NCBI GenBank assembly: GCA_035759745.1
Contig: DASTUF010000068.1
Coordinates: 20,935-84,934 of the forward strand
Length of the DNA stretch: 64,000 nt
Direction of reading: 5' to 3'
Source of the DNA: Gemmatimonadales bacterium
GTDB lineage: Bacteria; Gemmatimonadota; Gemmatimonadetes; Gemmatimonadales; GWC2-71-9
A program made the translations under genes and the position numbers. The notes below the pieces were generated by a model. That model was not told the origin of the DNA and made no database searches. It worked only from the letters and a program-made list of their open reading frames with translations. Every line of letters begins with the position of its first letter. Position 1 is the stretch's first letter. Of this stretch, positions 47,592-63,934 are shown piece by piece.

Positions 47592-47608
47592 GGCAGGTCC
47601 GGGATGCT

Positions 47609-47643
47609 GGAAACACAACACCCCGTCCGGCAGGGACGGGGTG
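47609..47643 (-). terminator. Intrinsic-terminator-like hairpin downstream of tRNA-Asp, immediately upstream of rsmH
   Basis: The minus strand reads CACCCCGTCC-CTGCC-GGACGGGGTG followed by TTGTGTTTCC. This is a 10-bp perfect GC-rich stem with a 5-nt loop and a U-rich tail. Confidence 0.6.
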
Positions 47644-47662
47644 AGGCGTTCATCGAGATGAA

Positions 47663-47737
47663 CGGGGCTGACGGGGCTCGAACCCGCGACCTCCGCAGTG
47701 ACAGTGCGGCACTCTAACCAAGCTGAGCTACAGCCCC
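47663..47737 (-). tRNA. tRNA-Asp (anticodon GTC)
   Basis: Hand-folded: acceptor GGGGCTG/CAGCCCC, D arm GCTC..GAGT, anticodon stem CCGCA/TGCGG with loop CTGTCAC, T arm GCGGG-TTCGAGC-CCCGT, discriminator G. 75 nt. No encoded CCA. Confidence 0.93.
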
Positions 47738-47799
47738 AGCAAACAGGCGCGCAATGTAACTGCCGGGCGCGGGGGGCGGTAGCCCCCGCACCCCGGCGT

Positions 47800-49545
47800 T
47801 CAACCGCAGAAGGACGTAACCAGGGCCGTCGTGCGTTCCTTGTACTGGACGATGCTTCCTTCCAGCCTGCCCGCCTCCTCGGGACGCCCGGTCTTGGCCT
47901 TCTGAATGGACGGACCGGCCTCGGTCATCAGCGCGTCCATGCGGCGTGCAGTCTCGCACGACTTGCCGGCCACCGCCTGGTCATCCAGTTGCGCCGTCAG
48001 TTGCAGGTTTGCCACCGCGAGCAGGTACGCCATCGTCGGCGAGAACGGAGCGTCAGGCGCCAGCTCGACTCCCTTGCGGAGCATCTCGCCTGCCAGCTCG
48101 AAGTTGGCCGTGTCGCCCACGGCAGTGTCGGGCTGGATGTACTTCAGCGCCCCATTGGTCAGAATGCCGGCGGCCTGCGGCTTGGAAAAGTCGTCGCCGT
48201 TCCGGCTCACCACGTCGATGAACGGCATGGCTTCCTCGCCACGCCGGGCATTCACCAGCGCCTGGGCCGCCGACAGCGCGGCCGTGACGTTGGTGGAGTC
48301 GATGGCCAGCAACCGCTGCGCGGCGGCCAGCGTGCTGTCGGCCTGCCCGGTGTAGGTGTACCCCTTGATCACGTTGGCCAGCATCGTCGGGTTGTTGGGA
48401 AACTTCTGCGCCCCGATGGCCGCCCACTTGGCGAAGGTCGCTGTGTCAGCTGCCGTCGGCGCCGGCATCGTGTCCGAGAGCCGCTGCTCGGCTGCCGCCG
48501 CGATCTTGGCGAAGAACAGCGTGTCGGCGCGGAGCGAATCGACCGCGTACGCCTGTTCCAGCGCCTGCACCGCGCACTGGTAGTTGCCGGCGAAGAGACA
48601 CGCGCTGCTCTTCAAGTCGTAGAGCTCGGCGTTGGTGGGATCGAGGCGCAGGCCCTCGTCCGCAACCTGAACGGCGGCATCGGACCGGCCGGCCGAGAGG
48701 AAGTAGCGGAACGCGCTCTGGCGCAGCTCCTGGTCGGTGGGCGCCGCCCGCAGCATGCTCTGCAGCATCGCCACCGCCTGCGTGGTGTCACCCTGCACCT
48801 CATGGATCGAGGCCAGCTGCCGCATGGCGATGACGCTGAGCGAATCGCCGGCGACCGCCGCCGAGAGATGCTCAACCTTCTGGGCGGTGTCGGTGGCAAG
48901 CTGGGCCAGGCAATAGTGCGCCAGGCCATTGGTCGGCATCCCCTTGAGAACCGATTCGGCCTTCTTGCGGGCATCAGCGGGCTTCTGGGCGCGAAGATTC
49001 ATGCATTCGCGGGCGTCGGCCAGGTTCTCCAGGGCCGGCCTCAGCGCATCCGCTGCGGCCTCACCCATCGCCTGCGGCGTGCCGCTCTGCTGAATGCGCA
49101 CCGTCACGCCGGCGTCATCGTTGGTGCCAGTCAGACGGGCCACCATGCTCCACTGGCCACTGGCCGGCTTCGACATCTGCGAGGTAACCAGCACCCGCCC
49201 GGCGATCTGCTGTGCCAGGGCGCGAGACAGCGCCGGCGTCAGCAACTGGTGCGGGTCATAGCCAAACTGCTCCAGCGCGGCGCTCATCATCGAGTCGCTG
49301 ATGACGGAATAGGTGTTTCGGGGCGCAACCCGGGCCACACGATCACGCATGGCCTGGCCCACACCCACCGCCAGCGCACTGTCGGCGGTGGTGAAGACGT
49401 AGGGGGTCGCCACCATGATCCGGGTCAACGGTGTGGCGGATCGTCCGCCCCCGATGCGGGCACCCGAAGGGATGCCCTGCGCTACGACCGGCGCCGCGCC
49501 CAGCACCATCAGCATCGAAGCCAGTCCGAATTGGCGAATCTTCAT
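47800..49545 (-). CDS. Exported TPR-repeat protein
   Basis: Start taken at the ATG at 49543-49545 (MKIRQFGLASMLMVLGAAPVVAQG...), because the track start at 49599 would overlap tRNA-Val. There are multiple A/L/Y-rich helical repeats of TPR type and a C-terminal Cys (SFCG). Confidence 0.7.
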   Translation of the reverse strand: MKIRQFGLASMLMVLGAAPVVAQGIPSGARIGGGRSATPLTRIMVATPYVFTTADSALAVGVGQAMRDRVARVAPRNTYSVISDSMMSAALEQFGYDPHQLLTPALSRALAQQIAGRVLVTSQMSKPASGQWSMVARLTGTNDDAGVTVRIQQSGTPQAMGEAAADALRPALENLADARECMNLRAQKPADARKKAESVLKGMPTNGLAHYCLAQLATDTAQKVEHLSAAVAGDSLSVIAMRQLASIHEVQGDTTQAVAMLQSMLRAAPTDQELRQSAFRYFLSAGRSDAAVQVADEGLRLDPTNAELYDLKSSACLFAGNYQCAVQALEQAYAVDSLRADTLFFAKIAAAAEQRLSDTMPAPTAADTATFAKWAAIGAQKFPNNPTMLANVIKGYTYTGQADSTLAAAQRLLAIDSTNVTAALSAAQALVNARRGEEAMPFIDVVSRNGDDFSKPQAAGILTNGALKYIQPDTAVGDTANFELAGEMLRKGVELAPDAPFSPTMAYLLAVANLQLTAQLDDQAVAGKSCETARRMDALMTEAGPSIQKAKTGRPEEAGRLEGSIVQYKERTTALVTSFCG

Positions 49546-49598
49546 TCCCTGTCCTCCAAGGCGTGGAGGGCCGAACCCGGCCCGATTGACTCGCTGCA

Positions 49599-49673
49599 TG
49601 GGCGAAGAGGGATTCGAACCCCCGACATCCTGCGTGTAAGGCAGGCGCTCTGAACCAGCTGAGCTATTCGCCC
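49599..49673 (-). tRNA. tRNA-Val (anticodon TAC)
   Basis: Hand-folded: acceptor GGGCGAA/TTCGCCC, anticodon stem CCTGC/GCAGG with loop CTTACAC, T arm GGGGG-TTCGAAT-CCCTC, discriminator A. 75 nt. No encoded CCA. Confidence 0.93.
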
Positions 49674-49742
49674 GTCTGGCGCCTCATCCTCACTGAAATT
49701 ACCCCAGGATGCAGGCTCCGTGCCGTGGTCCGTATCACGCTG

Positions 49743-49934
49743 TTACAATGCGATGGCCAACGGAAATAGCACGCAGTAGCCCACAACCAGCAGGACCGCC
49801 GCAGCCGACGGATGGCCCGCATTGAGGACGGCGTAACCCGCCACCAGCGTCAACGTGGCGATGGCCAGCAGCACGAGATTGCGGCGCCCGAAGAGCGCCG
49901 AGCGGCCCCGCGTAGTCACAGATGTACCTGTCAT
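49743..49934 (-). CDS. Small two-TM membrane protein, unknown function
   Basis: 63 aa. FGRRNLVLLAIATLTLVAGYAVL...AAAVLLVVGYCVLFPLAIAL. It is the last ORF of the long minus-strand gene run. Family not established. Confidence 0.45.
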   Translation of the reverse strand: MTGTSVTTRGRSALFGRRNLVLLAIATLTLVAGYAVLNAGHPSAAAVLLVVGYCVLFPLAIAL

Positions 49935-49946
49935 AAGGGCATCACG

Positions 49947-50951
49947 CTACTCACTCGGCGGGACTCGGTCAAGTTCTGCAAGGGCTTCCGGGGACGGTAT
50001 TTCCCAGCCCTCGTCGAGCGCCTCCCGGCGCGGAAGGTCCTGGCGCCGCCGGAACCAGGCTGCTGCCATCACGGCTGCCGCCATCACCACCCAGAAGCCG
50101 CCGGCCACCATCCAGGTAAGCAGCCCATAGCGTCGGCGCACGTCTCGCCGCCAGGCTGCCGCAAACTGGCCCGGGTTGAGCCCGGTGCTGCGCCGGACAG
50201 CATCGCGCCAAGGTACACCCTGCCGCAACAGCTCCAGCAGTGGAGCCAGCGACCCCGTCGGGTGCCGTCGCGCCAGGTCGAGTACGGCGCTGGTCGCCAG
50301 TGCGTACGACGCCTCGGCAGCAGCGGGCCCGGCGCGGAGCGTGGAATCAAGCTGGTCGAGCTCGGGGACTGCGCCACGGAGTACCGAGACGTTGAGCGCG
50401 AGCCCGTCGAGGCGGGACCACTCTCCCGCCGCGTACGAGGCGTATCCCTCCTCGAACCAGCGAGGCATCCGGGTGCGGACCGCACGCCGGAGCGCAAGGT
50501 GGGCCAGTTCGTGGCGCAGGGTACCCGCGGGATCGCCGGCGTCGGTGCGGATGACTATCGTCCTGCTCCCCGGCAGGGCGACGCCCGCGCCCCATGCTGG
50601 CGCCCGGCCCCCGGTCATCCGCTGCAGCGCGTCTACATCCGGCACCACGATCAGCCGAATCGGGCCCGGGTCCTGGCGCCCCAGGCCGGGCCAGGTGGCG
50701 GGCATATCCGCGATTTCGCCGAGGGTGGTGGCCAGGCTCATTTGTTCGGGCCAGGCCACCACCGTTACCTGTCCTACGATGGCAACGTCCGGCCGGCCAG
50801 GATCGGTTCCCTGCAAGCCCAGCAGGAACAGGAGTAGGGTCAGGCGGACTGACGTCGCGGTATGTCCCCTCCGCTGGCGACCAGATCCAGCATCTCCTTG
50901 CAGCGCTTGCCATGGGGGCTGAGCCGGTTGGCCCGCCAGCCCTCGCCCCAC
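49947..50951 (-). CDS. Putative zinc metallopeptidase (HExxH) with a C-terminal TM segment
   Basis: 334 aa. HELAHLAL followed 17 residues later by EEGYASY (a gluzincin-like third ligand). Hydrophobic LTLLLFLLGL near the N-terminus, and WMVAGGFWVVMAAAVMAAAW near the C-terminus. The only in-frame start upstream of the first hydrophobic segment is the GTG at 50951, which overlaps the upstream gene by 112 nt. Confidence 0.6.
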   Translation of the reverse strand: MGRGLAGQPAQPPWQALQGDAGSGRQRRGHTATSVRLTLLLFLLGLQGTDPGRPDVAIVGQVTVVAWPEQMSLATTLGEIADMPATWPGLGRQDPGPIRLIVVPDVDALQRMTGGRAPAWGAGVALPGSRTIVIRTDAGDPAGTLRHELAHLALRRAVRTRMPRWFEEGYASYAAGEWSRLDGLALNVSVLRGAVPELDQLDSTLRAGPAAAEASYALATSAVLDLARRHPTGSLAPLLELLRQGVPWRDAVRRSTGLNPGQFAAAWRRDVRRRYGLLTWMVAGGFWVVMAAAVMAAAWFRRRQDLPRREALDEGWEIPSPEALAELDRVPPSE

Positions 50952-51712
50952 GACTCGAGCGCTGCATCGCGGTCATCGGCGAGCCACTGGGCTCGCCCCA
51001 GTTCGTACCAGGCCTCGATCATGTTGGGCCCCAGCGCCAGCGTCTTCCGGAAGAAGCTCTGCGCATCGACGTACATCTCGCGCTCCAGATAGACCAGCCC
51101 GAGGTAGAAATGAGCGTATAGTGTGGCCTTGCGGTCGTTGTCCAGGCGGATGGCGCGCGAAAGGTGCTCGATGGCCTCGCCGAAGATCCGCTTCTTGAGG
51201 CAGATGTAGCCAACGTTGATCCGGGCGAGCGCGTTGGACGGCTCGCGCATGAGGACGCGGGAGAAGGTGGAGAGTGCCTCGTCGTACTGCTCCGCGTGCA
51301 TCTGGGCCCAGCCAAGGAGCGATTGGGCCTCGGTTGCGTCGGGAGAGAGCGCCAGCGCCTTCTCCAGCACCTGGATGGCCGAGGCGTACTCGCCCAGCGA
51401 AATCAGGCTCCAGCCCTTCTCGATGAAGGTGGAGGCCCCGATATGGTCGGCATGCACCGCTGGAGCCGAGCCCGGGAGTCGCGGGCCGGCGTCGGCATCC
51501 GCGGCCGCCATGGTCTGCTTGTACCCGTCCACCAGCGTTCGGATGCTCTCCTTGATCTCGCCCATCTCGACCAGCGTCGCATCCACGTCCTTGAACAGGG
51601 CGATGATGTCGCGCTTCACCGCTTCGCGATCGGCCGCGCTCGCCGTCGCGGCCAGCCGGGTCTCGATGTCGGCGTAGCGCCGGCGGAAGTCGGCTGCGGC
51701 AGGCTCGGTCAT
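50840..51712 (-). CDS. TPR-repeat protein with an N-terminal coiled-coil region
   Basis: 290 aa. TPR-like units (EYASAIQVLEKALALSPDATEAQSLLGWAQMHAEQYDEALSTFSRVLMREPSN...). Overlaps the cheW stop by 4 nt. Confidence 0.7.
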   Translation of the reverse strand: MTEPAAADFRRRYADIETRLAATASAADREAVKRDIIALFKDVDATLVEMGEIKESIRTLVDGYKQTMAAADADAGPRLPGSAPAVHADHIGASTFIEKGWSLISLGEYASAIQVLEKALALSPDATEAQSLLGWAQMHAEQYDEALSTFSRVLMREPSNALARINVGYICLKKRIFGEAIEHLSRAIRLDNDRKATLYAHFYLGLVYLEREMYVDAQSFFRKTLALGPNMIEAWYELGRAQWLADDRDAALESWGEGWRANRLSPHGKRCKEMLDLVASGGDIPRRQSA

Positions 51713-52173
51713 CGGGCCAGCCGCTCCAGCTCGACCCGCTCGGTCGAGTTGAACAATCGGCGGGCGTTGAGCAGCAGCAGCACCCGCTCGCCCACGGTGG
51801 CAATTCCGGTGATGAACTCCGCCGCCAGGCCCCTCACCATCTCTGGCGGTGCGGCGATGACGCCGGCATCCACGCGCATCACCTCGCGCACTTCGTCCAC
51901 GACGACCCCCACGCCTTCCCCACCCATGGTGATGACGACGATCCGGGTGTCGTCATCCACGGTGGCCGGCAGGCCGAGGCGCTTGCGGAGGTCCACCACC
52001 GGCAGGGCGGATCCATCGTGCTGGACCATCCCCTCGAGGAAGCCGGGAGCACCGGGCAGCGCCGACGGCTGCTGCCACCGGAGGATGCGCTCCACCTGCA
52101 GGATATCGAACGCGAACTCCTGGGTGCCGGTGCGGAACGCGACCAGCTGCACATCATCGCCCGTCATCGTCAC
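51709..52173 (-). CDS. cheW: Chemotaxis coupling protein CheW
   Basis: 154 aa. QLVAFRTGTQEFAFDILQVERIL...PGAPGFLEGMVQHDGSALPVVDLRKRLG...GVVVDEVREV, the canonical CheW pattern. Confidence 0.9.
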   Translation of the reverse strand: MTMTGDDVQLVAFRTGTQEFAFDILQVERILRWQQPSALPGAPGFLEGMVQHDGSALPVVDLRKRLGLPATVDDDTRIVVITMGGEGVGVVVDEVREVMRVDAGVIAAPPEMVRGLAAEFITGIATVGERVLLLLNARRLFNSTERVELERLAR

Positions 52174-52592
52174 AGCATTCCCTCCTCGGCCAGCCTGGCG
52201 CCGAGCAGTGAGAGGTCCAGCAGGGGGATGAGTGAGTCCTCGTACCGCAGCACCGCTCGCGACCAGGGCACTGCCCGGTCAACCGGCACCGCCATCGGGT
52301 CGCCCTCGATCACCAGGTCGGCGTGATCCACCTCGAGGCAGATTCGGCGGCCGTCGGCGTTCAGCACCACGGCCATGGGCGCCGTCGCGGGTTCGGCTCC
52401 GCCGGGCGCCAGCATCCGGGCGAGCGACAACACCGGCACCAACTGGCCCCGGAAGGTCGCGACGCCGACCAGCGACGCCTCTCGGGCCGGGACCGGCGCG
52501 ACGCTGCCGGCGTCCGCCACCAGCTCGAGCTCGCGCACGGGAAGCCCGAAGGCACGGCCACCCGCATGGACCAGGAGGAACGATTCACTCAC
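52170..52592 (-). CDS. CheW-like domain protein (second, divergent)
   Basis: 140 aa. [21 protein letters not shown]...[27 protein letters not shown]... Confidence 0.75.
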
Positions 52593-53668
52593 GCGGCCGC
52601 CATGCGGCTGAGCCGCTCGGCGAGAAACTCGCCGATCCCGGTGATCGACAACTGCACGTCAGCGCCGCCGGCGACCCGGGCGGCGTTGGGCATGCCGTAC
52701 ACTACCGACGTCTCGCGGTCCTGGGCCACGCCAAGTCCGCCCGCTTCACGGACGGCGCGCATGCCTTCCGCACCATCCTTGCCGATTCCGGTCAGCACCA
52801 CCGCGATGGCGTGCCGTCCATAGCTGGCGGCGACACTGCGGAACAGCGGATCCGCTGCGGGGCGCACTCCCCAGACCGGCGCCGAGCGGTCGAGCAGGAG
52901 CGCCGGGCCGTCGCTCCGGCGCGCCACCGTCATATGGTAGTCACCAGGCGCCACGTATGCCGTGTCCTCCAGCAGCGGGGTCGCGTGCTCGGCTTCCACC
53001 ACCCGAACCATGCTCTGCGCGGCGAGCCGCTCGGCGAGGGTGCGGGTGAACCGGGGTGGCATGTGCTGCACGATGAGCACCGCGGCGCCCAGGCCCGTGG
53101 GCAGCCGAGGCACCACCTCCATAAGGGCGCGGGGCCCGCCGGTAGAGGCAGCGATCGCTACCACCCGGCGAGCGCGGTCCGGCAGGACGCCAAAACCGCC
53201 CGACTGCATCGGCGGCCGATGGGGGCGCGCGAGCGGGGCCAGGCGGAAGAGTTCGGCATGCTGGGCCGCGCGCAGCGCCGTGAGCACCCGCTGCCCCAGC
53301 CGCTCGACATTCTCCCGGCTCCGTCCCTCATCCTTGGCGACGAGGTCAACGGCACCGAGTTCAAGCGCCCGAATGGCACCGGCGGTGCCCGGCCCCGCGT
53401 ACGCGCTGACCACCACCACCGGCCGGGGGGCTTCGGACATGATGTACCCGATGGCAGCGAGCCCGTCGAGCTCCGGCATCTCGAGGTCCATCAGCACCAG
53501 GTCCGGCGCGAGCGCGTGCACCTTCTCGATCGCGTCCTGGCCGTTCCGCGCGGTGCCCGCGACGGTGAAGTCGCCCGACTGCTGCACCGCCTCCGCCAGC
53601 AGCCGGCGAAAGAACGGGCTGTCGTCGACGATCAGGACCGTGCGGGGGCTAGAGTTCGCGGTTGCCAT
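52589..53668 (-). CDS. cheB: Chemotaxis response regulator protein-glutamate methylesterase CheB
   Basis: 359 aa. Receiver domain ([14 protein letters not shown]...[14 protein letters not shown]), then the methylesterase domain ([26 protein letters not shown]). Confidence 0.95.
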
Positions 53669-54134
53669 GCGCCACCGAAGAGACTATCACGCTCCCGTCC
53701 GCAATGGTGAATGTTACCGTCCGGCCGAAGTCACCGCCTACCGCCTCGCCCATGATCGGAATCTCGTGCTGCAGCAGCACGGTGCGGGTAGCGACCAGAT
53801 TGCGCTCGCCCATCTGGATGGTCCCGGGTGACGCCAGGTTGGCGAACATGCTCGCCCCACCGGCGAGCCGGGCCTGGATCCGGCGGCGGTCGGCGCCGAG
53901 CTCGGTCATCGCGGCGAGCATCGCCGGGATCGCGGTCTGCGGCACCCGCGCCGGGCGATGCGTGGTGGATCGTGCCAGCGCCGGCGTCGGGAGCAGCACA
54001 TGCGCCAGGCCGCCCACGCGCGACACCGCATCGTGCAGCACGATGGCCACGCAGCTCCCCAGGCCGACCGTGACCAGCGTGGTGCCGGCGGTCGCGGCGC
54101 GAAGTTCGGCCACGCGCACGAAGAGCTTGCTCAC
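53649..54134 (-). CDS. cheD: Chemoreceptor glutamine deamidase CheD
   Basis: 161 aa. [14 protein letters not shown]...GLAHVLLP...KLAGGASMF-type pattern ([10 protein letters not shown] here). Confidence 0.9.
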
Positions 54135-54949
54135 GCGGCCCGCCGGTAGATGCGCTCGCGGGTGTCGATCAGGGTGAGCCGTTCGCGGGCGCTGCCGAGC
54201 AGGGTTTCCACTTTCCCCAGTACCAGCAGTCCCCCGGGCGAGAGGTGACCGGCAAAGGTCTCGAACAGACGCTCCTGCATCGGCCGATCGAAATAGATGA
54301 CGACATTGCGGCAGCAGATGAGATCGTACACCGGCCGCAGCGGCTGCTCGCGGGCGAGGTCAAGCCGGGTCACATGCACCAGCCGCCGAAGTTCGGCTCG
54401 GACCTGTCGGCCGGTCGGTGTCTCGACGGTCCACCGCGTCACGAAGGCAGGTGGCGTCTCCTGGAATGCCTCGGCCCGGTACTCACCAGCTGCGGCGCGC
54501 TCCAGCGACGCGCGGTCGACATCGGTGGCGTCAATCTCCAGCCGCCCCAGCCAGTCGGCGTGCCCCGCGTTCGCCGCCAGCTCGGCGACGATCATCGCGA
54601 TGGTGTATGGCTCTTCCCCCGATGCGCAGCCCGCGCTCCACACCCGCAGGGCGCCCTCGCGCCCCGACCACAATGCCGGCAGCGGACCGGTGCGAAGTGC
54701 GTCCCAGGTCTCCGGGTTCCGGTAGAAGCGGGTGACATTGATGGTGAGGGCATCCTGCAACCGGTGCAGCTCGTCCGCGTTCCGGTCCAGGAAGTCGAGA
54801 TACTCGTCGTAGCTGGCCGCACCGCAGGCGCGCATCCGCACGGCGATGCGCCGGCGGAGGCACTTGTCCTTGTACACCTCGAGGGACATGCCCGACGCGG
54901 CGGAGAGGCGGCGGGTGAGCCGCTCGAACTCGACATCGCGGTCGGTCAC
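54131..54949 (-). CDS. cheR: Chemotaxis protein-glutamate O-methyltransferase CheR
   Basis: 272 aa. Motifs TINVTRFYRNPETWDAL, RVWSAGCASGEEPYTIAM and LICCRNVVIYFD. Confidence 0.95.
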   Translation of the reverse strand: MTDRDVEFERLTRRLSAASGMSLEVYKDKCLRRRIAVRMRACGAASYDEYLDFLDRNADELHRLQDALTINVTRFYRNPETWDALRTGPLPALWSGREGALRVWSAGCASGEEPYTIAMIVAELAANAGHADWLGRLEIDATDVDRASLERAAAGEYRAEAFQETPPAFVTRWTVETPTGRQVRAELRRLVHVTRLDLAREQPLRPVYDLICCRNVVIYFDRPMQERLFETFAGHLSPGGLLVLGKVETLLGSARERLTLIDTRERIYRRAA

Positions 54950-56565
54950 GAGGCAGCATCCAGCAGGTCGAGATTGGCACGGGCCAGCTGATGGGCCGGG
55001 TTGAGTTCGGTGGCCCGGAGCCAGCGTTCGCGGGCGCGCACCGTCTCGCGCCGCTTGAAGGCGATGTTGCCCAGCTTGAAGTAGACGTCGTCGCCCAGGT
55101 CCGGCGCGAGCTTCAGCGCCCGCTCGTACGCGTCGGACGCCTCATCGTAGCGGCCCGAGCGATAGCAGATGTCGGCGAGGTTCTTCCACAGCTGCGGCAA
55201 GGCTGGCTCATCCTCGAGCGCGGCGCGCAGCAGGCGTTCCGCCTCCTCGACATGGCCGCCGGCCTCCAGCAATACAGCCAGCGCGTTCCTGAGGATGGCA
55301 CTGCCCGGATGGGCCTCGACTCCGGCGCGGGCGGTCTCGCGTGCGGCGTCGGACCGGTCCGCAACCGCATGCGCCAACGAGGCGGCCCAGAACCAGACGG
55401 CCGGCACCGGGCGCTGTCCCAGGAGCTCCCGGGCGCGCTGCAGCCGCTCCAGCGCCTGGGCATGGTCACCGCGCTTGAGGGCAATGATGCCCCAGCCCAG
55501 CTGGATGCGCGGCTCGTCCCGGGCCCGGGCCGCCGCATCGGCATAGGCGGCCTCGGCCTCCTCCAGCCGGTCGAGACGTTCGAGCGCGTAGGCCAGGTTG
55601 TGAAGCGCCGCGGGCCGGGGGCCTCCCTTCTCGATCACCTCGCGCAGGATGTCGACCGCATCGGTCCAGCGCGCCTGGCACAGCGCGATCAGCCCCAGGT
55701 GAAAGGGCGCAGCGGCCTCAGAGGGGCGCAGGTCGGCCACCCGCCGGAACTCGCGTTCGGCTTCGTCCAGCATTCCGGTGCGGAAGAAGGCCACGCCGAG
55801 GTTGCGGTGCTCTTCGACCCTCGCATCGGTGGCACGCGGCGCGGACGACGCGGTCGATGAGCCGACCCGGTGCGCGAAGCCGGCGGTGATGAGGCCGTAC
55901 AGGGCCTTGCCGGTCTCGAACTCCACCAGGCCCGACTCCTCCATGACCTGCCGGACATCGCGGGTGCCATCGAGCAGCGGCAGTATCTGGCTCTGCGCGG
56001 CGCTCAACGTGACATCCGACTCGGCCATCCGGTCGGGCTCGACCCGGAACTGCAAGTCAAAGGACGGAATCTTCCGCGTGATCAGTTCCCACTCGTCCAC
56101 CCGTCGGGCTCCTTCGAGCAGCAGGCTCTCCGGGTTGATGGACACGAGGAAGTCCTCGCGTTCGGGCCGCACGCCGGCTTCGAAGTTGAAGGTCCCGCTG
56201 TTCCAGGTGAAGAGGAAATACACCGCCTCCTCGATCTGGACCCGCATGTAGTCCTCGAGCTCCTGGCGAGTGAGCGCGCCTGCTTCCACCAGCAGCTCGC
56301 CGATCTTCTGCTCCGGGGACTGCGCCTGCGCGTCCACGGCCCGCTGCAGCACCTCCGGCGCGAGCCGGCCGCTTCGCACCAGCAGGTCACCCAGGCGGTC
56401 GCGCCGGTTGACGATCGAGGCGTAGATCAGCCGGCCCTCATCGAAGTAGATGTAGCCGAAGTTCTGGCGATCGGCGATCGACAGGCATCCCGAGCGGCGC
56501 CCCAGCGTGAGCAGCTGGATGACGTCCGGCAAGCTGGCTTCCTTGAGGCTGCCCTTGATGGCCAT
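54946..56565 (-). CDS. PATAN/DUF4388-domain protein with a helical insert and a C-terminal TPR array
   Basis: Start at the ATG at 56563-56565 ([50 protein letters not shown]...), abutting the upstream stop. The G.L...SL.DV.QLL...SG.L...G.IYF..G pattern is the DUF4388 signature as I recall it. The C-terminal ~300 aa are TPR repeats. Confidence 0.75.
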   Translation of the reverse strand: MAIKGSLKEASLPDVIQLLTLGRRSGCLSIADRQNFGYIYFDEGRLIYASIVNRRDRLGDLLVRSGRLAPEVLQRAVDAQAQSPEQKIGELLVEAGALTRQELEDYMRVQIEEAVYFLFTWNSGTFNFEAGVRPEREDFLVSINPESLLLEGARRVDEWELITRKIPSFDLQFRVEPDRMAESDVTLSAAQSQILPLLDGTRDVRQVMEESGLVEFETGKALYGLITAGFAHRVGSSTASSAPRATDARVEEHRNLGVAFFRTGMLDEAEREFRRVADLRPSEAAAPFHLGLIALCQARWTDAVDILREVIEKGGPRPAALHNLAYALERLDRLEEAEAAYADAAARARDEPRIQLGWGIIALKRGDHAQALERLQRARELLGQRPVPAVWFWAASLAHAVADRSDAARETARAGVEAHPGSAILRNALAVLLEAGGHVEEAERLLRAALEDEPALPQLWKNLADICYRSGRYDEASDAYERALKLAPDLGDDVYFKLGNIAFKRRETVRARERWLRATELNPAHQLARANLDLLDAAS

Positions 56566-58550
56566 CAGCGCCACTCCTCGATCAGGCGCGCCGGCACCTC
56601 GGGCCACTCCCAGACCATCTTCTCCCGGCTGCGTATGCCACCGGCCACCAGCGGCGTGACGCCATTGGTGCGGGGCTGCACCGTGCGACGGGCGGCGCCG
56701 GTGGAGGAGCCATCGAGCACCTCACGCGCCAGCACCGCGCTCGCTGCCACACCCTTCGCCTCGGCTGCCTGAAGTACGCGCTGGACCGTGCCAAGCGCCG
56801 CGCGGAACGACTCGGCCGGGCGGCTGCCGATAACCCCCGGCAGCTCGGGGTCCACCTGCTCGAGCCGGGCCGACAGGTGTCGCTCGGCAACGCGCTGGCG
56901 CAGGTCGCGGTCCGGCTGCGGCAACTCGACCACCAGGCCCCCCTCGAACCGGGTCAGCAGCCGAGGCGCCATGCCGGACAGCTCGGCCAGCGGCACGCCG
57001 GTGGTGAACACCATCTGCCGGCCGTGGTCATGGAACTCGTTGAACAGCAGGAAGAGTTCCTCCTGCGAGCGTTCCTTGTCCGCGAGCAGGTGGACATCGT
57101 CGATCAGCAGCGCATCGGCCCGGCGCCAGCGCGCCCGCCAGCGGGGGACCGCGTCCTGGTCGATCGCCGCGATCAGCTCCTCCACGAATTCGTGCGCCCC
57201 AACGCACGCGACCGTTAATCCCGCGGCCGCAAGCGCGTTGCCCACGCCATGCAGGACATGGGTCTTGCCATTGCCGCTGGCGGCGCTGATCAGCAGCGGG
57301 TTGTAGCGGGTGCCGGGCTCGGCCGCGACCGCGCGTGCGGCGCGCACCGCCACACGATTGGCCGGGCTTTCGAGCAGATCATCGAGCAGCCAGTGGGGTG
57401 ACGGCGGCGAGGGCGGTTCGAGGCCCTCGCGCGCACGCTCCAGCAGGGAGGCGGCGGCCTCGACCCGGTCCGGGTCCCGCAGCGCCTGATCGCCAGCGAG
57501 GTCGGGTGCCACCCGCTCGAGGTCCTCCGCGATCTGCTGCAGCCGCCTCACGTCCGTCGCGAATGCGGCGAGCGCTCCGTCCGGATCCTGCGGCAGCGCG
57601 CCATTGTCCAGCAGTTTCTCGAGCCGGGTGGTGCGGAAGCCTTCGCCGCTCCAGCGCAGCACCGCTTCGGCCACGCGCGACCGCCACGACTCGACCTGCT
57701 GCGTCACCGTGCTCGCGATCTCCTGCAGGAAGTCGGTGAACTCATCCGTCCCGCCTTCCGCATCGTCGGCCGGCGCGCCTCCGCCCGCCGTGCCCTCGAT
57801 AGCCTCGCCGGCCCGGCTCGCAGCGACATCCGCGATGCCCGCGAGCTCGGCCCGCGCCTCCGCCACCGAGAGCGGCCGGCCCGCGGCGGCCTGGGCGGCG
57901 CTGACCCGGTTCAAGGCGCCGAGCAGCTCGCGCACATTGTCGAGCGGGATCTCCGCAGCGGCCTCGAGCACGCCCGGCGCGAGCTCAAGGCCGCGCGCCT
58001 CGGCCTTGCGGCGGAGGATGGCTACGCGGGTTTCGTAGTCCGGCGCGCCGACGTCCACCACCAGCCCGCCACCGAAGCGGCGCAGCAGCCGGTCGTCCAG
58101 CGCCTCGATGTCGGCCGGGGGACGGTCGCTGGCGAGCACGATCTGGCCGCCCGAGGCCTGCATCGCATCCACCACGCGCAGCAACTCGCTCTGCATTTCG
58201 CGGCGACGCGCCAGTGCCTGGACGTCGTCCAGCAGCAGCAGGCCAAGCTCGGAGTAGCGACGGCGGTAGGCATCACCCTGCCCTGCGGTGATGGCCGCAT
58301 GGAAAGCCTCGACGAAGTCGTCGAGTGTCAGGTAGCCGACGGCGAGGCCGGGATTGATGGCGAGTGCCGAGTGGCCGATGGCCGTGAGCAGGTGCGTCTT
58401 GCCCAGCCCCGGTGTGGCATAAATGAAGAGGGGGTTGTAGACCGCACCGGGAGACTCCGCCACGGCACGGGCAGCGGTGGCCGCCAGGCGGTTGCCGGAG
58501 CCGACCACGAACTCCTCGAAGCGGAGCCCCGGATGCAGCTTCTGGTTCAC
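56565..58550 (-). CDS. Tandem DnaA-type AAA+ ATPase (two DnaA domain-III-like modules; no DnaA domains I, II or IV)
   Basis: 661 aa with a GTG start overlapping the mglA stop (GTGA).
- Module 1: [81 protein letters not shown].
- Module 2: [61 protein letters not shown].
No DNA-binding HTH region was seen. Confidence 0.8.
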
Positions 58551-59146
58551 GCCGGCGCCCCTGCCGCGAGGCGACGAAGCACCGACTCGGAGATGCCCTT
58601 CAGCGTCTCGAAGACGCCGCTCCCGTGCAGGGCATCGGCGCCGAAGCTTTGCACGCCGCGGAAGTTCAGCGCCTCATCGAGCGCGTCGCTGGAGAGCACC
58701 AGGTCGGCCGGCAGGTCCTGCTTGTTGTACTGCAGCACGACCGGGAGGTCACGCACATCGACGCCCTGTTCCAGCAGGTTTTCCTGGAGATTCTGGAGGC
58801 TCTCGAGATTGTCGTCGAAGCGGCGGGCCTGGCTGTCGGCCACGAACACCACCCCGTCGGCTCCCTGGAGCACCAGCTTCCGGGTGGCGTTGTAGTAGCT
58901 CTGGCCCGGCACGGTGTACAGCTGGAACCTGGTGGTGAACCCCGAGATCGAGCCGAGGTCGAGGGGCAGGAAATCGAAGAAGAGCGTGCGGTCGCCGTGG
59001 GTCGCGAGCGAGACCATGCGGCCACGCCGGTTCTCCGGCACCCGCCCGAAGATGTACTGCAAGTTGGTCGTCTTGCCGGACCTGCCCGGGCCGTAATAGA
59101 CGATCTTGCAGGTGATCTCGCGGGTGGTGAAGTTGACGAGCGACAT
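58547..59146 (-). CDS. mglA: MglA-family small Ras-like GTPase
   Basis: ATG at 59144-59146 gives [33 protein letters not shown]...[11 protein letters not shown]...[10 protein letters not shown]...VLQYNKQDL. This is near-collinear with Myxococcus MglA as I remember it (P-loop, intrinsic Arg in [13 protein letters not shown], NKxD). Confidence 0.9.
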
Positions 59147-59147
59147 G

Positions 59148-59609
59148 TCAGCGTCCAAAGAGCGCGTGGAGGCTGGCGTTCAGCTCCCGCTCGAAGTTCT
59201 CGGCCAGCACCGGCGCCTGGGTGGTCTCGGGCGGCGCGACGGCCACAAGTTCGCGCACCAGTTCGTCCCAGAAGAGCTGCACCAGCCCGACGCTGGTCTC
59301 GCTGCCGAATACGACCAGGCCGACCCACCGGCCACGTGGCGTGTCGAATCCCGACAGCAGCATGCCCTGCTCACTGCCCTGGTGCACCAGCGCACCGAAA
59401 CCCCGCTGGTCCATGAGCCGGGCCACCTCGGTGGTCGAGGCGACGATGCCAGCACCGAGCGCCGCCGCCGCCATCACGTCCAGCGAGCGGGTGAATCCGT
59501 GCTGGGCCACCACCTGCCCCGCCGACGTCATCAACAGCACCACACGGGCTTCGCTCTCCGCGAGGAAGTGTTCCAGCGGCGGACCCACCCAGGGCTCGAG
59601 GGTGCGCAT
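59148..59609 (-). CDS. mglB: Roadblock/LC7-domain protein, MglB-like (putative GAP of MglA)
   Basis: Internal ATG at 59607-59609 of track ORF 59148..60209 gives 153 aa: [39 protein letters not shown]...[12 protein letters not shown]..., a Roadblock fold pattern. It sits directly upstream of mglA, as in the mglBA operon. Confidence 0.75.
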
Positions 59610-59959
59610 CAGCCGAGCCCCTGCGCGACGTCGAGCATTTCCAGCCGGGCCAGGCCCAGGTTGGCATCGGCCTGGGTCACTGCGACCACCAGCAGTTCTG
59701 CGGCGGCGGCAGGCACGGCGAGCAGGTTGCCGCGCTCCGCATGCAGGTGCAGCACCCGTGGTGCCTCCAGCCCGGCTTCGGCGGTGGTGCGCGCCAGTCG
59801 ACCCGCAAGACTCGCCGCCAGCGCTGCGACTGCCCGGCCATCCACGCCATCCATCAGCGACTCGGCCACAACCAGTCCGTCGGCCATGGAGACGAGCATC
59901 GCGCCCCGCACGCCGCGCACCGCGCTGATACGCCCAAGTTCGGTTTCGTAGCGACTCAC
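59609..59959 (-). CDS. Roadblock/LC7-domain protein (second paralog)
   Basis: GTG at 59957-59959 overlaps the upstream stop (GTGA). 116 aa: VSRYETELGRISAVRGVRGAMLVSMADGLVVAESL...AALAASLAGRL...NLLAVPAAAAELLVVAVTQADANLG. Confidence 0.7.
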   Translation of the reverse strand: MSRYETELGRISAVRGVRGAMLVSMADGLVVAESLMDGVDGRAVAALAASLAGRLARTTAEAGLEAPRVLHLHAERGNLLAVPAAAAELLVVAVTQADANLGLARLEMLDVAQGLG

Positions 59960-60852
59960 GAGGCCCGCTCCAGCCAGCGTCGCGCAGCAGCAGCGGCGCG
60001 ATCGGCGATGACGGCCAGCCGGCCGGCGGTGACGCTCGCATCGCGCGCCGCGAGGAGTACAGTGTCGGGTGATGGCGCCGCGAGGTGCAGGTTGCCAGGC
60101 CCGCACTCGGCCGACAATCGCTGCCAGTTGCCGAGATCCAGCAGGCGCGCGGCCCGCACCGCCTCTCGCGACACACCGGAGAGGTGCGCCGCCACAGCAT
60201 CGGCGACATCGCGACCGTCGCGATCGCGCAGGCCGCCGCCCAACCGCAGCCCGTTCACGTCGAGCAGCAGGAGACCGTCACGGGCGCCCTCGAATCCCTC
60301 GAACAGTTCTGACTCGGCCGGCAAGTCGTCGTCGGCCTCCTCCTCGAGCTCGAACGGCAGCCCTTTGCGCTGCCGGGGCATCGGCGCGCGGGGCTCGCTG
60401 GAGCGGGCGGACACGGGCGCCGGCGTCTCCTCGGCGCCCGTGGGGGCCGCACCATCCAGCGTGGCGCGCACGGTGGCGATTGCCCGGGCGAGTCCCGGCT
60501 CGTCGCTGCGTGCGCGGGCCATCTCCAGGTGACGCAGCGCGCGGGGCAGGTCACCCGCACGGTAGTAGAGGAATCCGAGGCCCTTGTGGGCGCCGAGATG
60601 GCTGGGATCCCGCTGCAACGCATCCATCCACGCATCGAACGCCGCTTCACCGTCGCCGAGGTCGCTATGGATCCTGGCCGCAAGATCGCGGGCATCGGCG
60701 AGTTCGGGATAACGCGCCATGCCGGACTCGGCCACACGCAGTGCGGCCTGGAACTGTCCCCGCCGGCGCAGAGTCTCCCCCAGGTCGAGGAAGACCAGGC
60801 TCGCCGGATCGGCAACCAGTTCCGCGGTCATGGCGCGGATCGATTCACTCAT
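59956..60852 (-). CDS. TPR N-terminal domain fused to a C-terminal Roadblock/LC7-like domain
   Basis: 298 aa. TPR units at the N-terminus, an acidic linker (PFELEEEADDDLPAESELFEGFE), then GLLLLDVNGLRLGGG...VADAVAAHLSGVSREAVRAARLLDLG..., which resembles Roadblock. The Roadblock assignment is by pattern only. Confidence 0.6.
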   Translation of the reverse strand: MSESIRAMTAELVADPASLVFLDLGETLRRRGQFQAALRVAESGMARYPELADARDLAARIHSDLGDGEAAFDAWMDALQRDPSHLGAHKGLGFLYYRAGDLPRALRHLEMARARSDEPGLARAIATVRATLDGAAPTGAEETPAPVSARSSEPRAPMPRQRKGLPFELEEEADDDLPAESELFEGFEGARDGLLLLDVNGLRLGGGLRDRDGRDVADAVAAHLSGVSREAVRAARLLDLGNWQRLSAECGPGNLHLAAPSPDTVLLAARDASVTAGRLAVIADRAAAAARRWLERAS

Positions 60853-61999
60853 GCGCGTTCCTCATGGCTCGGCCCAGCATCCGCGCCGCCGCGCGGAGTT
60901 CGCTGACCCAGCCCCCCTTCGCATCTTCATCGGCAGGCCGCATCGGCAGCCTGCTCCACGCATCCCAACTGTCCACCGCTTCCTCGAAGCGTCCGTCGCC
61001 GGCCAGCGCCATGCCAAGCAGGCGGCGCGAAGTGGCATCGCCGGGCGCCAGCCGAAGCGCCTGCTCGAGGGCCGCCGCGGCATCGGCCGGCCGGCCGGCC
61101 GCGAGCAGCACCCGTCCCAGCATCAGGTACAGCGACGGGTGCTCGCCCACCGACATGGCAGCGGCCTCCTGCACGGCTGCAAGGGCCTGCTGGGTATTGT
61201 CGGCGATCAGGTACGCTTCCGCCCGCGCCAGCAGGTCGGCCACGTCGCCGCTCTCCGCCTCGGGTTCCGGCAGTGCCCTGGGATCGTCGACCGCCACCAC
61301 GCCTGCGGCGGCGAGGCCGAACAGGGTCCGCGCCACCTCGAACTCGGAACGCGCGACGTGCTCGGCCACCGCGCGGATGTTGCGCTCGCCATCCACCGCC
61401 GCGAGCACTTCCCATTCGGCCGGGAGCAGGTCCATCGGTGCGGCATCGTGCTCGTCCGGCGCAATCAGGCGGGGCACCACATCGAGGTGGGGAATGCGGG
61501 CCTCGATCCGGCTCCACTCGTCGATGCGCCGGGCCGCTTCCATCAGCAGCGCCTCGGTGGGAATGCGCACCACCGCCTGCGCCGGCACATCCTCCAACGG
61601 CGCTTCGCTGAATGAGAAGTGGCCTTCGGCCCAGTTCATCAGCTCGAAGATCACTTCCTCCACCTGCCCCCGGACGTGGCGGTCCAGGTCGCGCTGGCTG
61701 ATGGCACCGATGCTCACCAGCACCTCACCCAGCCGGCGCCCGTCGCCGGTGGCCTGCATGTCGCGAGCCCGCGCGAGGTCCGAGTCGGAAACCTTGCCGA
61801 CCCGCAGCAGCAGCGCGCCGAGCGGGTGCGGATTGCTCTCGATCTCGGCGGCGACCACCTTGCCGCCATCGAAGTACACGGTGCCGCCATTCTGTCGCAG
61901 CTCGGAGCGCACCCGCAGGATGCCCGACTTCCGCGCCAGGTCGAGCAGCTGGAACACATCGTGAATGCCGAGCTCGCGAAGCGGTCCCTCGATCGGCAT
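60845..61999 (-). CDS. PATAN/DUF4388-domain protein with a helical insert and a C-terminal TPR region (second paralog)
   Basis: 384 aa. MPIEGPLRELGIHDVFQLLDLARKSGILRVRSELRQNGGTVYFDGGKVVAAE..., then a winged-helix-like region and TPR-like helices. Confidence 0.75.
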   Translation of the reverse strand: MPIEGPLRELGIHDVFQLLDLARKSGILRVRSELRQNGGTVYFDGGKVVAAEIESNPHPLGALLLRVGKVSDSDLARARDMQATGDGRRLGEVLVSIGAISQRDLDRHVRGQVEEVIFELMNWAEGHFSFSEAPLEDVPAQAVVRIPTEALLMEAARRIDEWSRIEARIPHLDVVPRLIAPDEHDAAPMDLLPAEWEVLAAVDGERNIRAVAEHVARSEFEVARTLFGLAAAGVVAVDDPRALPEPEAESGDVADLLARAEAYLIADNTQQALAAVQEAAAMSVGEHPSLYLMLGRVLLAAGRPADAAAALEQALRLAPGDATSRRLLGMALAGDGRFEEAVDSWDAWSRLPMRPADEDAKGGWVSELRAAARMLGRAMRNAHE

Positions 62000-62002
62000 G
62001 GC

Positions 62003-63934
62003 TCAGGCCTCCCGATCAGCGAGGATGTGCTCGAGGTCGCGGGCTGAACGCGCACGCGAGCGCGCCTCGCCCGCCAGTGCCCCGCCCGGCTCCAGCTGGA
62101 TCACGCGGTCCCAGGCTTCGACCGCCGCACGAAACTGGCGCACCCGGGCCAGCGCCGCCGCGCGATGGAAGAGCGCCAGCACATGGTCGGGCACGAAACG
62201 GAGCACCCGATCGAACGCCTCGAGCGCCGGGCCGGTGCGACCGTCGTCGAGCAGCGCGCGCCCCAGCAGCGCGAGGGCGTCGAAGTCGTAGGGATCGGTC
62301 TCGAGCACCGGCACCAGGAATGACACCGCTGCCCTGGGCGACTCGGTGCGGCGCAGCAGGTCGCCCAGCGACAGCTGCGCGGGCGAGTAGGTCGGCAGCA
62401 GCTGCAACGAGCGCTCGTAGGCCGCTCGCGCTGCGGTAAAGTTCTCCCGGGTCTCCTCCAGCCCGCCCAGTTCGCGCCACACCTGCACCAGGCCGGCATC
62501 GATCCGCAACGCCAGCTGGCATGCCTCGAGCGCGGCTTCGGTGTCGCCCATGCGCGCAGCGATGGTGGCCTGCAGCTGATAGAGCTCCGGCCGTCCCGGC
62601 GCCACTTCCAGCGCATGGCGAACCAGCCGAAGCGCGCTTCGCTCGTCATCGACCGCGAGATGCGCCCGGGCGCAGGCCACCAGCGCCTCCGGATCACGCG
62701 GCCGCAGCCGCTCCAGGCGCGCGGCGAGTTCCACGGCCTCCGCTCCCCGATCGAGCGCGGCCAGCGACCGGATCTCACCCAGCAGCGCGTCGCCGTCGTC
62801 GGGAAGGGCCGCCCGTGCATCGCGGAATCGCTCCAGTGCCTCCCCGTGGAGCCCGCGCCGGGCAAAGATGTCGCCCATGAGGGTTGCCACCCGCCCTGGA
62901 TCGGCACCGCGGGCACGCGCGCGCCCAAGTTCTGCCGTCGCCAGCTCGAGCAGTCCCTTGGCGACATAGTCGCGCGCCAGCGCGAGCGGGTCGTCGGCCG
63001 ACACCTCGGCCGATGCGGGCCGGGCCGCGGGCGCGAGGTCAGTGAACAACTCCTCCAGCGCTTCGGGGTCAAACGCAAACTCGCCTGCCAGCTGCTCTCC
63101 CCCGACGTCGCCCGCCAATTCCGGCATCACGCCGATGGTGGGATCCTCGTACTGCAAGTCGAGCGCGAGCGTGTACTTCTGGGCGACATAGAACGGCTCC
63201 AGCTCGAGTGCCCGGCGGGTCTCCCGCAGCGCGCCGTCGTAGTCGCCGACCTGGCTCAGGGTGAAGCTCAGGTTGTAATGCGCGGACGCGAGGTCGCCGT
63301 CCGCCTCGACCGCGCGCTGGAACGCGGTGCGTGCTTCGGCGTAGCGCTGCAGCTCCATGAGCACGAGACCGACGCCGTTCCAGGCCAGGGCATTCGCCGG
63401 CTGGTCGGCCAGCACCCCACGGTAGTGCTCCAGCGCCGCCTGCAGTTCGTGGCGCTGGAGGTGGAGCAACGCGACGTTGAGCCGCACCGCGGGCGGCAGC
63501 CGCCCGGCCTGCAGCGCCCGACGGAAGGTCGCCAGCGCGAGGTCGCCCTCGCCGTGCGCGGCATGCAGCACGGCCAGGTTGTTCCACGCGATGGCATAGC
63601 CGGGATCCAGATCCACCGCGCGCAGGTATGACTCCTCGGCCGCCTCGCGCTGGCCCAGCTGCTGGAGGCAGACGCCGCGCTCGCTCCAGAGCTTGGGGGA
63701 ATCGGGATCCTGGCGCGTCAGTTCGTCGTAGCGCTCCAGGGCGGAGGGCAGTTCGCGCCGGAGCAGCTCGACCTCGGCCATGGCCTGCAGCACCAGACGG
63801 CGGTCCTCGCCCGCGTCCAGCGCGAGCCGATACTCGCGCAGCGCCTCGACCAGGTAGCCCTTCTGGCGGAAGGCGAGCCCGAGGTTGAAGTGCGCGAGTG
63901 CCGCATCCGGCACCGGCAGCGGCGCGTCACCCAC
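62003..63934 (-). CDS. Large TPR-repeat protein (about 14+ TPR units); possibly 5'-incomplete
   Basis: 643 aa from the GTG at 63934. TPR consensus is repeated throughout (AHFNLGLAFRQKGYLVEALREYRLALD..., AWNNLAVLHAAHGE..., AHYNLSFTLSQVGDYDGALRETRRALELEP...). The frame stays open upstream to position 64000, so the true start may lie outside the window. Confidence 0.7.
   Translation of the reverse strand: MGDAPLPVPDAALAHFNLGLAFRQKGYLVEALREYRLALDAGEDRRLVLQAMAEVELLRRELPSALERYDELTRQDPDSPKLWSERGVCLQQLGQREAAEESYLRAVDLDPGYAIAWNNLAVLHAAHGEGDLALATFRRALQAGRLPPAVRLNVALLHLQRHELQAALEHYRGVLADQPANALAWNGVGLVLMELQRYAEARTAFQRAVEADGDLASAHYNLSFTLSQVGDYDGALRETRRALELEPFYVAQKYTLALDLQYEDPTIGVMPELAGDVGGEQLAGEFAFDPEALEELFTDLAPAARPASAEVSADDPLALARDYVAKGLLELATAELGRARARGADPGRVATLMGDIFARRGLHGEALERFRDARAALPDDGDALLGEIRSLAALDRGAEAVELAARLERLRPRDPEALVACARAHLAVDDERSALRLVRHALEVAPGRPELYQLQATIAARMGDTEAALEACQLALRIDAGLVQVWRELGGLEETRENFTAARAAYERSLQLLPTYSPAQLSLGDLLRRTESPRAAVSFLVPVLETDPYDFDALALLGRALLDDGRTGPALEAFDRVLRFVPDHVLALFHRAAALARVRQFRAAVEAWDRVIQLEPGGALAGEARSRARSARDLEHILADREA

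Follow-up and report, generated by a model that had tools for sequence, protein, structure and literature searches.

The stretch of DNA analysed here, 64,000 nucleotides from a Gemmatimonadales bacterium (contig DASTUF010000068.1, positions 20,935 to 84,934; in the following, the window), encodes a protein of 661 residues in which two AAA+ modules of the DnaA type are joined in a single chain that contains no DnaA-type DNA-binding domain. The gene, named the tandem gene in the following, lies between mglA, which encodes a Ras-like polarity GTPase, and a gene for a protein with PATAN and TPR domains, and this arrangement is preserved in all Gemmatimonadota loci that extend far enough. The tandem protein combines an ATPase fold that is already known with an architecture that is new and with a new, conserved and non-replicative context. 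From its sequence, its predicted structure and its genomic setting we consider it somewhat probable that it would have no part in replication and act as an ATP-driven assembly switch or scaffold in a polarity or motility module that comprises MglA, Roadblock and PATAN-TPR proteins and usually a Che system. To our knowledge, descriptions of DnaA-type AAA+ domains are limited to proteins that initiate replication or directly control initiation, i.e., DnaA and Hda.

The tandem gene and its two DnaA-type modules

The tandem gene can be divided into the following parts (coordinates in the window):

56565..58550, minus strand: whole tandem gene, GTG start, stop codon at 56565-56567, 661 residues (open reading frame list; Pfam Bac_DnaA matched twice)
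57813..58550, minus strand: module 1, DnaA domain III, residues 1-246 (TIGR00362 score, structural model, motif set)
57717..57812, minus strand: disordered linker rich in acidic residues, Gly and Ala, about residues 247-278 (low model confidence; length and sequence variable in the alignment)
57423..57716, minus strand: middle helical domain, residues 279-376 (alignment conservation and AlphaFold)
56709..57398, minus strand: module 2, a more diverged DnaA domain III, residues 385-614 (TIGR00362, PF00308)
56631..56708, minus strand: disordered spacer before the tail, about residues 615-640 (low model confidence at 617-649)
56568..56630, minus strand: C-terminal tail motif of 21 residues, residues 641-661 (alignment conservation)

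The Bac_DnaA family (PF00308) was matched in two stretches of the protein with an E-value of 1.8e-88 in Pfam. If scanned alone, module 1 reaches 164 bits with PF00308 and 251.5 bits with the DnaA model TIGR00362, the latter over profile positions 102-338 of 437, and module 2 reaches 134 bits and 175.6 bits, respectively, over profile positions 106-339; positions 102-339 of this profile correspond exactly to DnaA domain III. Profiles of related AAA+ proteins score far lower, as for modules 1 and 2 the Hda model TIGR03420 yields 88.9 and 70.6 bits (cut-off 194.8), IstB, the IS21 helper, 52.6 and 46.7 bits (cut-off 200) and DnaC 20.8 and 13.0 bits (cut-off 357), and the HdaA models yield at most 37 bits compared with cut-offs of about 300. 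By these scores both modules are assigned to the DnaA type and not to Hda, DnaC or IstB. Two neighbour-joining trees of the modules with DnaA, Hda and DnaC conflict on the position of Hda, and the classification is based on the profile scores and not on tree topology.

Each module covers a full domain III, i.e., AAA+ base and lid, and module 1 is 42-48% identical to DnaA of Escherichia coli and Bacillus subtilis. The model of module 1 superimposes on domain III of B. subtilis DnaA (8bv3) with 44% identity, a target TM-score of 0.94 and a root-mean-square deviation of 1.6 Å (Foldseek). Module 1 holds the complete domain III motif set, as stated in the original prediction, with K51/T52 in Walker A, D108/D109 in Walker B, R154/R158 in box VII and R207 in sensor II, of which R154, R158 and R207 are the equivalents of E. 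coli DnaA R281, R285 and R334. Module 2, 36% identical to module 1 (E 2e-28), repeats the set with K429/T430, D484/D485, R530/R534 in box VII and R583 in sensor II. The degenerate sensor II that had been ascribed to it needs to be restricted to the surroundings, in which the consensus has drifted, as R583 itself is retained; sensor I of module 2 is degenerate, with SDR changed to TGV.

The other parts of DnaA are missing. Domain IV with its helix-turn-helix (Bac_DnaA_C, PF08299) was not matched even at an E-value of 10 in the C-terminal parts, TIGR00362 positions 340-437 have no match in either module, and Pfam yields no DnaA_N match (PF11638, domain I) in the tandem protein, the N-terminus of which is the LNP..F..FV lead-in of DnaA domain III (family consensus MxxxLNPxxTF). 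In tblastn of E. coli DnaA against the whole window only the two modules were found, with E. coli residues 138-363 and 121-363 at 42% and 35% identity, and no match beyond residue 363 was obtained anywhere in the window. Compared with DnaA, the tandem protein is thus made of two modules, a new helical domain and a tethered tail, without domains I/II and IV, and its gene is located in a polarity/Che operon instead of a dnaA-dnaN locus. With this domain content the protein is predicted to be unable to read DnaA boxes in the manner of an initiator, and the proposal of two DnaA-type modules without a DNA-binding domain has been borne out by the profile searches; the missing domains and the locus also speak against the protein being the replication initiator. 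Gemmatimonas aurantiaca presumably possesses an ordinary dnaA.

The source annotations, mostly from JGI/IMG, often label members of the family as "chromosomal replication initiator protein DnaA," and this name is wrong for the tandem family. The whole protein scores 422.6 bits with TIGR00362 and passes the cut-off of 343.9 only because the scores of the two modules sum. A gene fusion or assembly artefact was considered and set aside, as the architecture of 650-680 residues recurs in hundreds of clusters and in 80 species genomes. The identical 661-residue protein is present on other metagenome contigs, and the GC content at third codon positions of the tandem gene, 0.87, is like that of the neighbouring genes.

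The closeness to DnaA raises the question whether the protein could be a regulator of replication that joins or caps the DnaA AAA+ filament, or stimulates hydrolysis of DnaA-bound ATP via its arginine fingers as Hda does, and in this way ties initiation to polarity or division. The DnaA-type character of both modules, neither of which is Hda- or DnaC-like, the high identity of module 1 to domain III and the conservation of box VII and sensor II, which form the protomer contact surfaces, speak in favour of it. Hda and HdaA are likewise DnaA-derived AAA+ proteins without domain IV that place an arginine finger on the ATP site of a partner. However, Hda is a single module of about 230 residues preceded by an N-terminal clamp motif with a consensus similar to QL[SP]LPL, whereas the tandem protein has two modules that score far under the Hda cut-off, and reading of the sequence of its eleven N-terminal residues and of the family consensus revealed no beta-clamp-binding motif, the first fourteen residues being an ordinary domain III start. 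We regard this role as unlikely, also in view of the gene neighbourhood described next.

Conservation and genomic context of the family

In a first homology search more than 120 homologue clusters with 59-92% identity were obtained, all of 646-680 residues except one of 633, which, where named, are called "DnaA/Hda family protein" or "DnaA ATPase domain-containing protein" (Gemmatimonadales) or carry the initiator name; an exhaustive representative search extended the full-length relatives down to about 31% identity. A species-representative genome collection was searched with an alignment of five sequences (A3), and the best 80 loci, with 41-65% identity, were considered. All of these are labelled Gemmatimonadota except for one "Limnocylindria" bin and two unlabelled loci. 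The former (L013, DASURX010000200.1, "Candidatus Limnocylindria bacterium") contains an operon of the Gemmatimonadales type with 63% identity to the window protein, and its label is probably a binning error.

The genes around the tandem gene in the window are:

62003..63934, minus strand: TPR protein of 643 residues (TPR643), head of the conserved block (many TPR families)
60845..61999, minus strand: upstream PATAN (DUF4388) and TPR gene (PF14332, E 4.8e-31)
59956-60852, minus strand: TPR and Roadblock gene (Pfam Robl_LC7)
about 59609-59959, minus strand: small Roadblock gene (Pfam Robl_LC7)
about 59148-59609, minus strand: MglB-like Roadblock/LC7 gene (Pfam Robl_LC7)
58547..59158, minus strand: mglA, Ras-like polarity GTPase (Arf, Ras and small_GTP matches; hallmarks are a ten-residue stretch and TVPGQ); translation probably begins at the ATG at 59146
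54946..56565, minus strand: downstream PATAN and TPR gene (PF14332, E 3.1e-35, and TPR)
51709..54949, minus strand: cheR, cheD, cheB, cheW, cheW (open reading frames; Pfam families of the orthologues in locus L001)
42970-51712: TPR gene, gene for a TPR protein of 599 residues, then rsmH-ftsL-ftsI-murE of the division and cell wall (dcw) cluster

Synteny was determined by tblastn of the window genes against the loci, and only loci that extend far enough were counted. The order TPR643, PATAN-TPR, TPR-Roadblock, Roadblock, MglB-like, MglA, tandem gene and PATAN-TPR was found in every Gemmatimonadota locus that reaches far enough, and mglA lies directly upstream and the PATAN-TPR gene directly downstream of the tandem gene in all that reach them. 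In the window the GTG of the tandem gene overlaps the mglA stop codon (GTGA) and its stop codon overlaps the ATG of the PATAN-TPR gene (TGATG), as had been noted before. In most loci cheR-cheD-cheB-cheW-cheW and the TPR gene come next. About nine Gemmatimonadota lineages (L043, L046, L047, L051, L060, L061, L066, L071, and L076) have no downstream cheR-cheD-cheB-cheW, and the core MglA/tandem/PATAN module is evidently able to stand without it. Neither dnaA nor dnaN was ever found beside the tandem gene in the loci examined, a constancy of polarity and Che neighbours that speaks against a regulator of replication.

A distant branch of low GC content with about 28-30% identity to the window protein shows which part of this context is general. 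In the member named "Cloacimonetes bacterium 4572_55" the tandem gene is accompanied by cheW-cheY-cheA-...-cheC-TPR-PATAN with no adjacent mglA or mglB, and a second distant member adjoins a TPR643 homologue only. In both distant loci, L085 and L086, a TPR643 homologue lies beside the tandem gene and mglA is not adjacent. TPR, PATAN and Che proteins are the steady companions across the wider family, and the linkage to mglA is absolute only within the Gemmatimonadota. The original prediction of an integral part of the MglA operon, for which linkage of orthologues to mglA, Roadblock and PATAN genes was to be scored, is accordingly supported by the gene overlaps and by the synteny in the Gemmatimonadota and does not extend to these two loci.

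In at least 38 Gemmatimonadota species loci (e.g., L043, L047, L056, L060, L061, and L063) the block is located directly upstream of rsmH-ftsL-ftsI-murE, as in the window, and no mraZ was noticed between the polarity/Che block and the dcw genes. This position adds to the arguments for a regulator that connects replication with division, but it may be inherited gene order and not a functional link.

DnaA modules without domain IV were also encountered in pilus gene clusters. Among the weaker family matches are proteins of 1876-1990 residues in which an N-terminal MshEN domain is combined with two DnaA modules, and one member of this MshEN-DnaA family is named Candidatus Fermentibacteria. They belong to type IV pilus clusters found in three loci:

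L091:4309-15923, L094:5800-17268 and L095:5619-17217: MshEN-DnaA type IV pilus clusters

The genes are arranged in the order pilin-like, pilD (absent in L095), MshEN with two DnaA modules (about 980 residues), MshEN (about 430 residues), MshEN with one DnaA module (about 420 residues), MshEN followed by two separated DnaA modules (about 1990 residues), a TonB_C-domain gene and pilB; in the single locus extending past pilB, a gene for 330 residues, pilT, pilC and pilS come next. No DnaA domain IV was found in the MshEN-DnaA fusion genes of the three clusters. Similar to the tandem protein, these proteins contain domain III only, some of them in tandem, and are encoded with motility and polarity machinery; they differ by the N-terminal MshEN domain, by long coiled-coil spacers, by the lack of the middle domain and the tail, and by their neighbours pilD, pilB, pilT and pilC. 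Fermentibacteria and Gemmatimonadota both belong to the Fibrobacterota-Chlorobiota-Bacteroidota (FCB) group. Motility machinery has hence acquired domain-III-only DnaA modules on at least one further occasion, in a lineage that is a neighbour of the Gemmatimonadota, and the location of these fusions in pilus clusters is a further point against a role in replication control.

Several side observations on the window and on atypical relatives are given here. Three distinct Roadblock/LC7-type genes precede mglA, whereas the paradigm established in Thermus and Myxococcus has only one MglB; locus L001 has the same three Roadblock genes and, in addition, cheW-cheY-cheA-cheC upstream. The operon block showed neither RomR nor RomX. 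The helical insertion of the downstream PATAN domain (residues 71-124, window 56194-56355, minus strand) matches NCBIfam NF053729, "cyclic di-GMP-binding domain, MshE-related," with 38.9 bits, just over the cut-off of 38, which hints that the PATAN protein next to the tandem gene may sense cyclic di-GMP. A ComEC-type gene with Competence and metallo-beta-lactamase domains lies at 13014-15323 on the minus strand of the window, about 40 kb from the tandem gene, with no evidence of a link. Among other proteins with DnaA modules and without domain IV, P0263 (L092:8001-9689) is a tandem protein of 562 residues, its modules joined by a short linker, and has unrelated metabolic genes as neighbours, P0296 combines DnaA module(s) with zinc ribbons in 839 residues, and P0299 (L093:8001-9845) has a single DnaA module in 614 residues and an uninformative context.

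Middle domain, tail and ATP sites

AlphaFold2 modelling of the full protein from an alignment of 40 sequences resulted in a mean predicted local distance difference test (pLDDT) of 85 and a predicted template modelling score (pTM) of 0.67, with disorder (pLDDT <50) confined to residues 249-281 and 617-649. The region between the modules had been described as an acidic/Ala-rich linker of about 150 residues. This holds for the roughly 30 disordered residues 249-281, whereas residues 279-376 form a conserved folded helical domain, which reaches a pLDDT of 91.9 when modelled alone. Its consensus DEFxxFLxxV...W(R/K)...W..EGYRT.RLE.LL...FRDPD follows the variable acidic stretch in an alignment of 20 diverse full-length relatives (A1) and also in alignment A5. 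The domain has no match in Pfam or NCBIfam and no fold match in the PDB, the best Foldseek E-value being 3.2.

The Trp-rich C-terminal tail of the original prediction does exist, and it can be refined to a conserved motif that is attached via a flexible spacer, the length of which varies. Roughly, this motif reads (E/D)(K/R)xΦxxWP...(D/E)RΦΦE(E/D), in which Φ is hydrophobic; E642, K643, W648 and P649 are almost invariant in alignment A1, and a short helix is predicted at residues 652-660. The same motif occurs in distant branches, e.g., in P0189, P0270 and P0178, and the spacers in front of it range from about 30 to several hundred residues in the relatives; in P0173, P0185 and P0239 it stands behind a disordered, often acidic spacer of about 180-550 residues. 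To find one tail on spacers of such different length is the behaviour that would be expected of a tethered docking peptide. For comparison, the acidic C-terminal helix of MglB, which is also tethered, binds to an allosteric pocket of MglA (PMC6785124). A CheR-binding pentapeptide as present in methyl-accepting chemotaxis proteins was considered for the tail and set aside because the motif does not form the very C-terminal end; it is also disfavoured by the persistence of the motif in P0178 (L086) and P0270 (L085), which have no cheR within 10 kb.

In DnaA filaments an ATP site becomes complete through the arginine finger of the adjacent protomer, as in the Aquifex DnaA structures 2HCB and 3R8F, and both structures are among the fold matches of the model. 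The conservation of the corresponding residues was counted in modules aligned from 76 representatives clustered at 50% identity, some of which are fragments or poorly aligned. In module 1 the Walker A lysine is present in 75/76 and Walker B in 74-76/76; the respective numbers for module 2 are 58/76 and, for its DD pair, 52/76. The arginine finger is found in 54/76 for module 1 and in 58/76 for module 2. The P-loop of module 1 and the finger of module 2 are both intact in 56/76 representatives, compared with 32/76 for the reciprocal pair. Module 2 has thus lost its P-loop in about a quarter of the representatives and has mostly retained its finger; in the branch of P0173, P0185, P0239, P0161, P0179, and P0193 it lacks Walker A and Walker B and keeps the finger (RxxxR). 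In the simplest reading of these counts there appears to be one conserved composite site, made of ATP bound to module 1 and the finger of module 2, with a dispensable second site. An intramolecular finger/ATP interface, as originally proposed, would be consistent with the census, and the contact may be formed in cis or head-to-tail between chains.

The decay of module 2 bears on another explanation, in which the DnaA folds would serve as rigid blocks of a catalytically silent scaffold with no role for nucleotide turnover. The retention of the protein in the representatives that have lost the module 2 P-loop and the degenerate sensor I of module 2 in the window protein agree with it. However, the nearly invariant Walker motifs of module 1 together with a mostly conserved partner finger are the pattern expected of a working ATP site, and we consider a silent scaffold very improbable.

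A different alternative is a nucleic-acid-dependent ATPase that acts on single-stranded DNA or the nucleoid, as a positional anchor or DNA sensor for the polarity or pilus machinery, for instance in DNA uptake. AAA+ proteins of the initiator clade (DnaA, DnaC, IstB, ORC) generally act on DNA, and type IV pili take up DNA in many bacteria. V211, K243 and R245 of E. coli DnaA constitute its single-strand-binding H and B motifs. Module 2 of the window protein has I, K and R at these positions, with Arg at the R245 position in 46/76 representatives, and both modules of the 1990-residue Fermentibacteria protein keep the single-strand-binding residues. By contrast, module 1 has H84 in place of V211 and E118 in place of R245, a position taken by Glu or Asp in 44/76, a double-strand-binding domain is lacking, and the conserved block contains no DNA-processing genes. 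A role of this kind therefore seems rather doubtful for the tandem protein.

Proposed function and relation to known systems

In the assembly switch or scaffold that we favour, module 1 would bind and hydrolyse ATP, and the box VII finger of module 2 would complete the module 1 site, within the chain or head-to-tail between chains as in the DnaA filament. The nucleotide site of module 2 itself would be slower or purely regulatory, and it is this site that is lost in some lineages. The ATP state would set the conformation or the oligomeric state of the tandem protein, and thereby the choice of partners open to the middle domain and to the tethered WxWP...LIEE peptide. Among possible partners, the neighbouring TPR/PATAN proteins or MglA would be the most plausible; an action on the GTPase is one option, and the large number of TPR proteins would provide another candidate receptor. 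The output would likely concern a motility apparatus, e.g., type IV pili, with its polar placement or its activity under control. In Synechocystis, PATAN regulators are reported to bind the pilus motor (bioRxiv 10.1101/2021.06.11.447907), and in Myxococcus a contribution of MglA, TPR and PATAN proteins to pilus polarity has been discussed (PMC11580455).

Several observations weigh against this proposal. The window itself contains no pilus genes. The asymmetry is drawn from the relatives, as the window protein itself has two intact nucleotide sites and two intact fingers, and the census of the relatives includes the fragmentary and poorly aligned sequences mentioned above. The pTM of the full model allows only moderate confidence in the overall arrangement. 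Furthermore, the single-strand-binding residues of module 2 leave room for a role linked to nucleic acids, and the fixed place upstream of the dcw cluster could instead indicate a role in the cell cycle.

The tandem protein can be compared with further AAA+ proteins and with the polarity system of Myxococcus xanthus. DnaC, DnaI and IstB belong to the same AAA+ clade and act as ATP-dependent switches in the assembly and handing over of partners; however, they possess a single module with other N-terminal partner-binding domains, and the tandem modules score weakly with them. Type II AAA+ proteins (p97/Cdc48, NSF, ClpB) resemble the tandem protein in having two modules per chain, often with one active and one degenerate site, but they are members of another clade, classical or HCLR, and form closed hexamers with stacked rings, and Foldseek matches to p97/Cdc48 reach a query TM-score of only 0.25-0.30 with 13-16% identity. 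The M. xanthus module of MglA, MglB and RomR/RomX with the Frz pathway shares with the window operon MglA with Roadblock partners, a Che-like pathway and TPR-rich effectors, whereas no DnaA-type ATPase is described there, and the window operon has PATAN-TPR proteins and three Roadblock proteins instead of RomR/RomX. A survey of prokaryotic small GTPases noted PATAN genes as neighbours of mglA and never mentioned DnaA (PMC4316618). In the literature searched, no account was found of a protein with tandem DnaA-like modules in connection with MglA or PATAN, in line with what had been stated at the outset.

More tentatively, the core of the initiator ATPase might have been copied, doubled and rebuilt as a second nucleotide switch beside MglA that times or places the motility or division machinery and, given its close resemblance to DnaA, may also inform this system about replication or the state of the DNA. 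The tandem family and the MshEN-DnaA fusions of the Fermentibacteria pilus clusters would then jointly constitute an unrecognised non-replicative branch of the DnaA family. We offer this as a possibility, and a less probable one than the assembly switch or scaffold as such.

The tandem proteins constitute a phylum-wide family that has kept the DnaA core at 40-50% identity, has dropped all parts for DNA recognition and is fixed in an operon with MglA, Roadblock, PATAN, TPR and Che genes. If the proposed function is true, the family would be a clear example of an ATPase of replication put to a new use in polarity or motility, and it would add an ATP-dependent component to small-GTPase polarity circuits, which have so far been described with GTPases, GTPase-activating proteins, guanine nucleotide exchange factors and response regulators. 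The family also provides a concrete gene for the cell biology of the Gemmatimonadota, a phylum little studied in that respect.

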